Source: a virus (lineage: Duplodnaviria > Heunggongvirae > Uroviricota > Caudoviricetes). Taken from it: a DNA stretch of 8,307 nt. Numbering within the stretch: the first letter of the stretch is position 1; each line of letters opens with the position of its first letter. The DNA is taken from positions 1 through 8,307 of IMG/VR virus record IMGVR_UViG_2690315922_000019; one strand, 5' to 3'. The notes under the pieces are model-generated. The model was not told where the DNA came from. It was given only the letters and a program-made list of their open reading frames with translations, and ran no database searches. Below are positions 6,029 to 6,534 of this stretch, piece after piece. The position numbers and the translations under genes are program-made.

Positions 6029-6250
6029 ATGGCAGACATCATTGATTCAGCATCAGAAATTGAAGAATTACAGCGCAACACAGCAATAAAAATGCGCCGC
6101 CTGAACCACCAGGCTATATCTGCCACTCATTGTTGTGAGTGTGGCGATCCCATAGATGAGCGAAGACGCCTGGCCGTTCAGGGTTGTCGGACTTGTGCAA
6201 GTTGCCAGCAAGATCTGGAGCTTATCCGCAAACAAAGGGGGATTAAGTGA
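6029..6250 (+). CDS. TraR/DksA-family C4 zinc-finger protein (73 aa)
   Basis: C-terminal CxxC…CxxC zinc-finger signature (CCECGDPIDERRRLAVQGCRTCASCQ) with an N-terminal coiled-coil-like segment. This is typical of TraR-like RNA-polymerase secondary-channel binders found in conjugative plasmids and prophages. Confidence 0.8.
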   Translation: MADIIDSASEIEELQRNTAIKMRRLNHQAISATHCCECGDPIDERRRLAVQGCRTCASCQQDLELIRKQRGIK

Positions 6251-6534
6251 TGGCTAACCTGCAACTTGCTGTTAAAAGTGAATACTTCGACGCCATGATT
6301 CGCGGGGAGAAAACGGAAGAGTATCGCCTGTGTAATGACTACTGGAATAAGCGAATTATGTTCCGGGAATATGACCGCCTGATTATCACAAAGGGATATC
6401 CGAAGCGCGACGATTCCAGCCGCAGAATTGATATTCCGTATGGCGGATATGAAATCAAAACAATCACACATCCGCACTTCGGTGATAAACCGGTAAAGGT
6501 ATACGCGATAAAGGTAAATATCGGCACTGAATAA
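6250..6534 (+). CDS. ASCH-like (PUA-fold) domain protein (94 aa from the ATG at 6250)
   Basis: Contains the ASCH signature GxKxxExR (IRGEKTEEYR) near the N-terminus. Its ATG overlaps the TraR-like stop (TGATG), suggesting translational coupling. The track begins the ORF at the GTG at 6247. Confidence 0.6.
   Translation: MANLQLAVKSEYFDAMIRGEKTEEYRLCNDYWNKRIMFREYDRLIITKGYPKRDDSSRRIDIPYGGYEIKTITHPHFGDKPVKVYAIKVNIGTE

Follow-up and report, generated by a model that had tools for sequence, protein, structure and literature searches.

A TraR-type zinc-finger gene and an ASCH-fold gene in the early operon of a phage-21-like prophage: probably independent neighbours rather than a two-part module

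Introduction

The stretch of DNA analysed here, in the following called the window, comprises the 8,307 nucleotides at positions 1 to 8,307 of the Caudoviricetes record IMGVR_UViG_2690315922_000019 and represents the early leftward operon (pL operon) of a lambdoid prophage resembling phage 21. Between its orf61-like gene and xis it carries a gene for a TraR-type zinc-finger protein, followed by a gene for a small protein of the ASCH type. A previous interpretation, made from the letters and open reading frames (ORFs) only and here called the sequence-only reading, regarded the two as a translationally coupled two-part module for host takeover or RNA targeting. Our analysis favours another explanation with good confidence: TraR and ASCH are probably two independent accessory genes of the pL operon, which came to stand side by side via mosaic recombination. 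This is mainly based on three lines of evidence, namely the many other neighbours of both genes, a stop/start overlap that joins ASCH to almost any upstream gene, and a mosaic junction falling inside the TraR 3' end.

Co-occurrence of the two genes

The two genes turned out not to be co-conserved. The neighbourhood of ASCH was compared at 88 evaluable loci, 78 of them on viral contigs and 10 in species-representative genomes (Brenneria, Citrobacter, Enterobacter, Kluyvera, Scandinavium, Dryocola and an Escherichia sp.). The gene directly upstream on the same strand belonged to a DUF551-type cluster at 30 of the 88 loci and was TraR at 20, DUF4752 at 15, an 86-amino-acid protein without Pfam match at 10, Lar-like at six and a singleton, including an HNH-like protein, at seven loci. 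No fewer than 12 unrelated types of gene were thereby seen to precede ASCH. In the other enterobacterial species, where 10 loci could be evaluated, TraR was never upstream of ASCH, and no small TraR-like ORF with the pattern CxxC-x17-CxxC was present within 3 kb of ASCH there.

The same situation was found in larger collections. Among 5426 complete E. coli genomes, 1492 (approximately 27%) carry ASCH in 1857 places, and a contiguous TraR–ASCH pair exists in 619 genomes. Either gene was detected in 5935 places, leaving about 4078 with TraR only, i.e. approximately one third of the ASCH copies and approximately 13% of the orf73-type copies are paired. Among phage records, 332 encode ASCH and four hold the contiguous pair, namely those of phage 21, ev207 (two records) and PhiR63_2. 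The phages 4A7 and 1H12, which are close relatives, possess TraR directly followed by DUF4222 without ASCH, and in lambda the TraR-type orf73 is followed by ea22. ASCH in turn exists in P22-like phages. Without TraR as a neighbour, it was also found in virulent phages (Jerseyvirus) and in RSA1, a P2-like Ralstonia phage with a homologue that is ~52% identical (L099 3001-3291). In the Shiga toxin (Stx) phage ST2-8624, a distance of about 2.5 kb, occupied by ea22 and six further genes, separates ASCH from the TraR genes.

Some additional observations were made during this survey. The ASCH gene of RSA1 lies directly 5' of the 2.8-kb ORF47, with overlapping stop and start. In P2 itself, the corresponding early operon encodes the TraR homologue Orf82. 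Moreover, 98 of the 1857 E. coli ASCH places are on plasmids, for example NZ_CP067430.1 (10620-10888) and NZ_CP183096.1 (44996-45267), and the three such plasmids that were listed, about 93-108 kb in size, may be phage-plasmids.

The stop/start junction and the boundaries of the ASCH cassette

The two genes meet in the sequence CAA AGG GGG ATT AAG TGA TGG CTA ACC. As the sequence-only reading had noticed, the TraR stop overlaps the ASCH start: the TGA at 6248-6250 and the ATG at 6250-6252 share one nucleotide (TGATG, 6248..6252, + strand), and the Shine-Dalgarno sequence of ASCH (GGGGG, 6237..6241, +) is embedded in the TraR 3' codons. The TGATG junction recurs in 22 related loci.

As a sign of partnership, which the overlap had been taken for, it is not informative. 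The ASCH start overlaps the stop of the upstream gene at 83 of the 88 loci, irrespective of the at least 12 kinds of gene found there. The overlap amounts to one nucleotide (TGATG or TAATG) at 33 and to eight nucleotides at 50 loci; in the latter, the upstream gene ends with CGT GGC TAA and ASCH starts with GTG GCT AAC. In every junction class, GGAGG or GGGGG was found at the same distance 5' of the ASCH start. Lambda shows the same style of junction with another partner, where the orf73 TGA overlaps the GTG start of ea22 in a GTGA (AAGTGAGCG). Such an overlap is generic, resulting from tight packing of the operon where mosaic segments join, and no partner-specific device; the ASCH cassette brings its own Shine-Dalgarno sequence and start.

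In the related loci L017-L096, upstream proteins of the DUF551, Lar-like and other types end with ...EVNRG and DUF4752 proteins with ...EEGRG; the TraR type of the window ends with ...QRGIK. Unrelated upstream proteins share their last residues because the Shine-Dalgarno and start region of the ASCH cassette (GTG-GCT-AA) encodes their last codons and stop. This short conserved boundary, located ~30 nucleotides before the ASCH start, looks like a recombination joint. In the window, the DNA identity with 4A7 and 1H12 stops at alignment column 210, corresponding to position 6209, and the left mosaic junction is thus situated within the 3' part of TraR. The segment differing from these two phages (6209..6559, +) comprises ~13 codons at the end of TraR, ASCH in full length and the spacer to DUF4222, its right edge being approximate. 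A programmed frameshift fusing TraR and ASCH (-1 frame) was also considered and dropped, as no canonical slippery heptamer was seen before the stop.

The TraR-type gene

The first gene (6029..6250, +) starts with ATG and encodes a protein of 73 amino acids. Its assignment to the TraR/DksA-type C4 zinc fingers by the sequence-only reading was confirmed: Pfam PF01258 matches above threshold (36.4 bits, cut-off 24.9, E 5e-9), as does PHROG 54 'DksA-like zinc-finger protein' with E 4.5e-25. The NCBIfam model TIGR02419 for the phage/conjugal plasmid TraR subfamily was narrowly missed (55.6 bits, cut-off 59.7, E 5.7e-15), and the F TraR equivalog model gave a weak 27 bits. The translation contains the C4 finger C35-x2-C38-x17-C56-x2-C59, the N-terminal DxxDxA motif (M-A-D3-I-I-D6-S-A8) and a C-terminal helix with E63-x-x-R66-K67.

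The gene itself is not new. Lambda contains an unannotated 73-codon ORF between orf61 and ea22, which is orf73, and the two proteins are identical in 69 of 73 residues (95%). Both genes directly follow an orf61-type gene in the exo-xis region. Judged from sequence and position, the window gene is an orthologue of the already characterized lambda orf73. Lambda Orf73 binds RNA polymerase, inhibits the promoters of rRNA and ribosomal proteins without guanosine tetraphosphate (ppGpp), slows host growth and increases the phage yield about 4-fold; its activity needs both aspartates (D3 and D6) in the DxxDxA motif, which reaches the region of the RNA polymerase active site (Gopalkrishnan et al. 2022, PMC9239242).

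Stx phage ST2-8624 has two tandem DksA-like zinc-finger genes 5' of ea22 (L098 2171-2302 and 2306-2527), of which the first is a short copy of 43 codons.

The ASCH-type gene

The second gene (6250..6534, +) encodes a stand-alone ASCH-superfamily (PUA-like) protein of 94 amino acids with an isoelectric point of 9.0. The ORF list used at the outset gives 6247..6534 (+) and 95 amino acids, counted from an alternative in-frame GTG at 6247, which would extend the overlap with TraR to four nucleotides. The consensus N-terminus of the family is MANLQL, and in other junction types ASCH starts with GTG at the codon equivalent to window position 6250; therefore, 6250 was taken as the start and is likely the correct one. 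The TAA at 6532-6534 results in the usual length for the family, whereas in phages 21 and ev207 this codon is TAT and the reading frame continues for ~14-16 residues into the 5' end of the DUF4222 gene (L004 2468-2803; L001 2466-2792). In 63 DNA alleles, 841 synonymous versus 450 non-synonymous codon changes were counted in the ASCH frame, compared to 132 versus 646 in the frame of a 123-amino-acid antisense ORF (6178..6549). This substitution pattern ruled out the antisense ORF as spurious, while TraR and ASCH are evidently real genes and no chance ORFs.

The sequence-only reading had recognized an ASCH domain by its GxKxxExR octapeptide. This motif indeed exists as GEKTEEYR at residues 19-26 (G19-E-K21-T-E-E24-Y-R26; codons 6304..6327, +), and it is strongly conserved among 68 diverse relatives that are 39-75% identical to the window protein: K21 in 68, E24 and R26 in 67 each, and G19 in 64 of the 68. 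W32, R35, G49-Y50-P51, G66, H74 and F77 are, like G19, E24 and R26, conserved to at least 90%. The near-invariant Lys21, Glu24 and Arg26 point to a conserved active or ligand-binding site.

Compared to the motif, the profile searches were much less conclusive. Pfam ASCH (PF04266) scored 15.2 bits with a gathering threshold of 21.2, and neither this model nor DUF3850 (PF12961) reached its curated threshold. Among the 68 relatives, the recurring Pfam matches were ASCH (five) and DUF3850 (three), all with E 0.0017 or weaker and below threshold. NCBIfam models did not match the protein, and sequence-profile searches of the PDB with two family alignments gave nothing significant, the entry 3iuw appearing at E 0.68 across the motif span only. 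Alignment of the family with hhalign to an unverified YqfB sequence gave a probability of 0.2 and thus no match, which is only weakly informative. PHROG 625 (unknown function) matches with E 3.5e-50, and the protein belongs to this uncurated branch. At NCBI, homologues are named 'ASCH domain-containing protein'; 641 close homologues and 1245 clusters at 50% identity (E <= 1e-3) were found for the family.

For the fold, structure prediction gave the support which the PDB profile searches did not provide. The AlphaFold2 model calculated from 28 homologues has a mean predicted local distance difference test (pLDDT) value of 84, and its top Foldseek match in the PDB is 3iuw (probability 0.99, template-modelling score about 0.5). 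The predicted PUA-like beta-barrel of the model is nearest to solved ASCH structures, and Foldseek against BFVD returned mostly unnamed phage proteins together with some named ASCH or DUF3850. For fold and motif, we accept the assignment to the ASCH superfamily, although the predicted protein stays below the curated threshold.

Searches for functional hints beyond the fold were negative. No defence model of PADLOC matched the TraR, ASCH, DUF4222 or orf61-like proteins, and none of the domain fusions among longer ASCH family members was informative, most being read-through artefacts with upstream ORFs. The metagenomic protein P0194 (364 amino acids) combines a partial RVT_1-like N-terminus (E 0.0068, below threshold) with an ASCH part that is missing the first strand, and is probably a chimera or pseudogene.

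Operon context

The gene order of the window starts with gam, bet, exo, DUF1317 (orf60a), DUF1382 (orf63) and the orf61-like gene, followed by a 31-codon ORF, TraR, ASCH, DUF4222, xis and int. The top DNA match is phage 21 (96.6% over 1.9 kb), whose annotation shows the identical order. Annotations of both genes already exist in public records, and the classic phage 21 contains the pair. A scan of the window found no promoter-like site upstream of the TraR or the ASCH gene, therefore both should be transcribed from pL.

Downstream of ASCH, the DUF4222 gene (6560..6799, +) encodes 79 amino acids (PF13973, E 8.5e-18). It is context only and no conserved partner of ASCH, the downstream neighbours of which are very diverse. 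The 31-codon ORF (5927-6022) upstream of the TraR gene is called 'putative secreted protein' in the annotation of phage 21. Inside it, just 5' of the TraR gene, there is a terminator-like hairpin (5951-5969, +), followed by TTTTTATTGTT. This hairpin is kept in lambda with one mismatch between orf61 and orf73 (lambda 30665-30691; L097 2966-2992, -). A literature search on lambda tL3, aimed at naming it, returned cloning papers only, and no name was assigned. A second terminator-like hairpin (5356-5378, +) lies within the orf60a-type (DUF1317) gene and may correspond to lambda tL3, a terminator located shortly after exo. Finally, the gap between DUF4222 and xis contains an AT-rich inverted repeat of 16 pairs (6807-6845), which scored as terminator-like on the minus strand.

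Discussion

Two independent accessory genes, joined by mosaic recombination, provide in our opinion the best explanation for the TraR–ASCH pair. By analogy to the 95% identical Orf73, the N-terminal DxxDxA helix of the first gene product would enter the secondary channel of RNA polymerase; it would then inhibit the rRNA and ribosomal-protein promoters without ppGpp, slow the host and raise the phage yield. The second gene would be a self-contained cassette for a small basic ASCH-fold protein, which may bind or deacylate N4-acetylcytidine (ac4C), be it the free nucleoside or the modified base within host tRNA, or may have a more general affinity for RNA. The stop/start overlap would represent the usual packing and co-translation in the pL operon, whatever gene is upstream. 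The opposite assumption of a coupled host-takeover or RNA-targeting module can refer to the real overlap, to the Shine-Dalgarno sequence within the TraR gene and to the contiguous pair itself, which many complete E. coli genomes as well as phages 21, ev207 and PhiR63_2 contain. Furthermore, both proteins could plausibly target host translation, TraR at the rRNA promoters (PMC9239242) and ASCH at tRNA ac4C (preprint 10.64898/2026.02.27.708502). However, either gene is much commoner without the other, the same kind of overlap joins TraR to ea22 in lambda and ASCH to DUF551, DUF4752, Lar-like and other genes, and a mosaic junction inside the TraR 3' end is what is expected for a swapped-in cassette. 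The module is largely refuted by the lacking co-conservation, and we consider it very improbable.

The activity of the ASCH protein is a separate question. ASCH proteins of both octapeptide groups, GKTR and GKER, are reported to erase ac4C from tRNA, and the Lys as well as the Glu/Thr of the octapeptide were essential in the assayed proteins (preprint 10.64898/2026.02.27.708502). The window protein has Glu24 and falls into the GKER rather than the GKTR group. An ac4C- or RNA-directed activity is our tentative best guess, and we rate its detection in vitro as somewhat less likely than not. The main rival to such an activity is a role without catalysis, in which the phage protein would read or bind modified bases of nucleic acid in the phage-host conflict and be no ac4C enzyme; it could, for example, shield phage nucleic acid, counter host defence or exclude superinfecting phages. 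Neither the PADLOC scan nor the domain fusions gave a hint in this direction, and catalysis by other ASCH proteins reportedly requires the very Lys and Glu that are invariant and near-invariant, respectively, in the octapeptide, which makes a pure reader unlikely. Still more sceptical would be the assumption that the ORF is outside the ASCH superfamily, with a coincidental motif and an unreliable fold prediction. It could invoke the Pfam score below the cut-off, the missing NCBIfam match, the PDB profile searches without significant result, the failed hhalign comparison with the unverified YqfB sequence and the modest structural scores. Given the conserved octapeptide and a model that is nearest to solved ASCH structures, we find it barely credible.

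Some points weigh against our explanation. The viral loci (80) represent the sequences closest to the query, and clonal lineages are over-represented among the E. coli genomes, therefore all percentages are rough; both biases favour finding the pair. The pair is also frequent in absolute terms, with its 619 E. coli genomes, and the combination may be of benefit in phage-21-type prophages. Moreover, the ac4C idea is based on a preprint with non-phage ASCH proteins.

A more far-reaching scenario is that phage ASCH is an early enzyme, which removes ac4C from host tRNA or hydrolyses the free nucleoside, alongside Orf73/TraR in phage-21-type prophages. In E. coli tRNA, ac4C is the wobble base of elongator tRNA-Met. 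We regard this scenario as quite unlikely as a whole. If true, Orf73/TraR would halt the synthesis of the translation apparatus, while ASCH would rewrite the modification state of the existing one. Even without strict partnership, a function would then be found for a gene that is present in about a quarter of the complete E. coli genomes.

Generally, the lambdoid early operon is most variable in this part, and the pairing reflects the mosaic shuffling there. The locus exemplifies how a short boundary sequence, consisting of a Shine-Dalgarno sequence and an overlapping start, lets a cassette plug in behind unrelated genes. The ASCH-fold gene of PHROG 625 is widespread in E. coli genomes as well as in Stx, P22-like, Jersey-like and P2-like phages. 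For this phage family, the work on ASCH proteins as ac4C erasers offers a direct assay.

Comparison with known systems

The closest known counterpart of the first gene is lambda orf73. In addition to 69 of 73 identical residues, both occupy the slot behind orf61 within the exo-xis region of the pL operon and share the DxxDxA motif, the C4 finger and the overlap of the stop with the next start. They differ by four substitutions (V48A, E60Q, S67R and S72I), the C-terminal tail accounting for three of these, and by the next gene, which is ea22 in lambda and ASCH in the window. TraR of the F plasmid, as a member of the DksA family (PF01258, TIGR02419), has the same length of 73 amino acids, a C4 finger and the acidic N-terminal motif; however, it is encoded in the tra operon, whereas the window gene is phage-borne and expressed from pL.

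With regard to the slot, ea22 and ea8.5 of lambda occupy the same place between orf73 and xis, but the proteins are unrelated to those of the window. ASCH and DUF4222 of the window replace lambda ea22, ea8.5 and lambdap35. This part of the proposed replacement was correct; the TraR-like gene does not belong to it, since lambda has it at the same position as orf73. The exo-xis slot after orf73 is known to hold a variable gene set (review, PMC8614690).

For the second gene, the solved ASCH structures were the top structural matches: 3iuw (E. faecalis 'activating signal cointegrator'), PH0355 (2z0t), YqfB (9kyf) and ZmASCH (5guq). They share the small single-domain beta-barrel, predicted for the window protein, and the N-terminal octapeptide. 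E. coli YqfB, the N4-acetylcytidine amidohydrolase (PMC6972931), has Lys and Arg at the same octapeptide positions but Thr at position 6 (GxKxxTxR), where the window protein has Glu24 and is, in this respect, not of the YqfB type. The same Glu24 places it with the GKER-group tRNA ac4C erasers (preprint 10.64898/2026.02.27.708502), the activity of which the phage protein may share.
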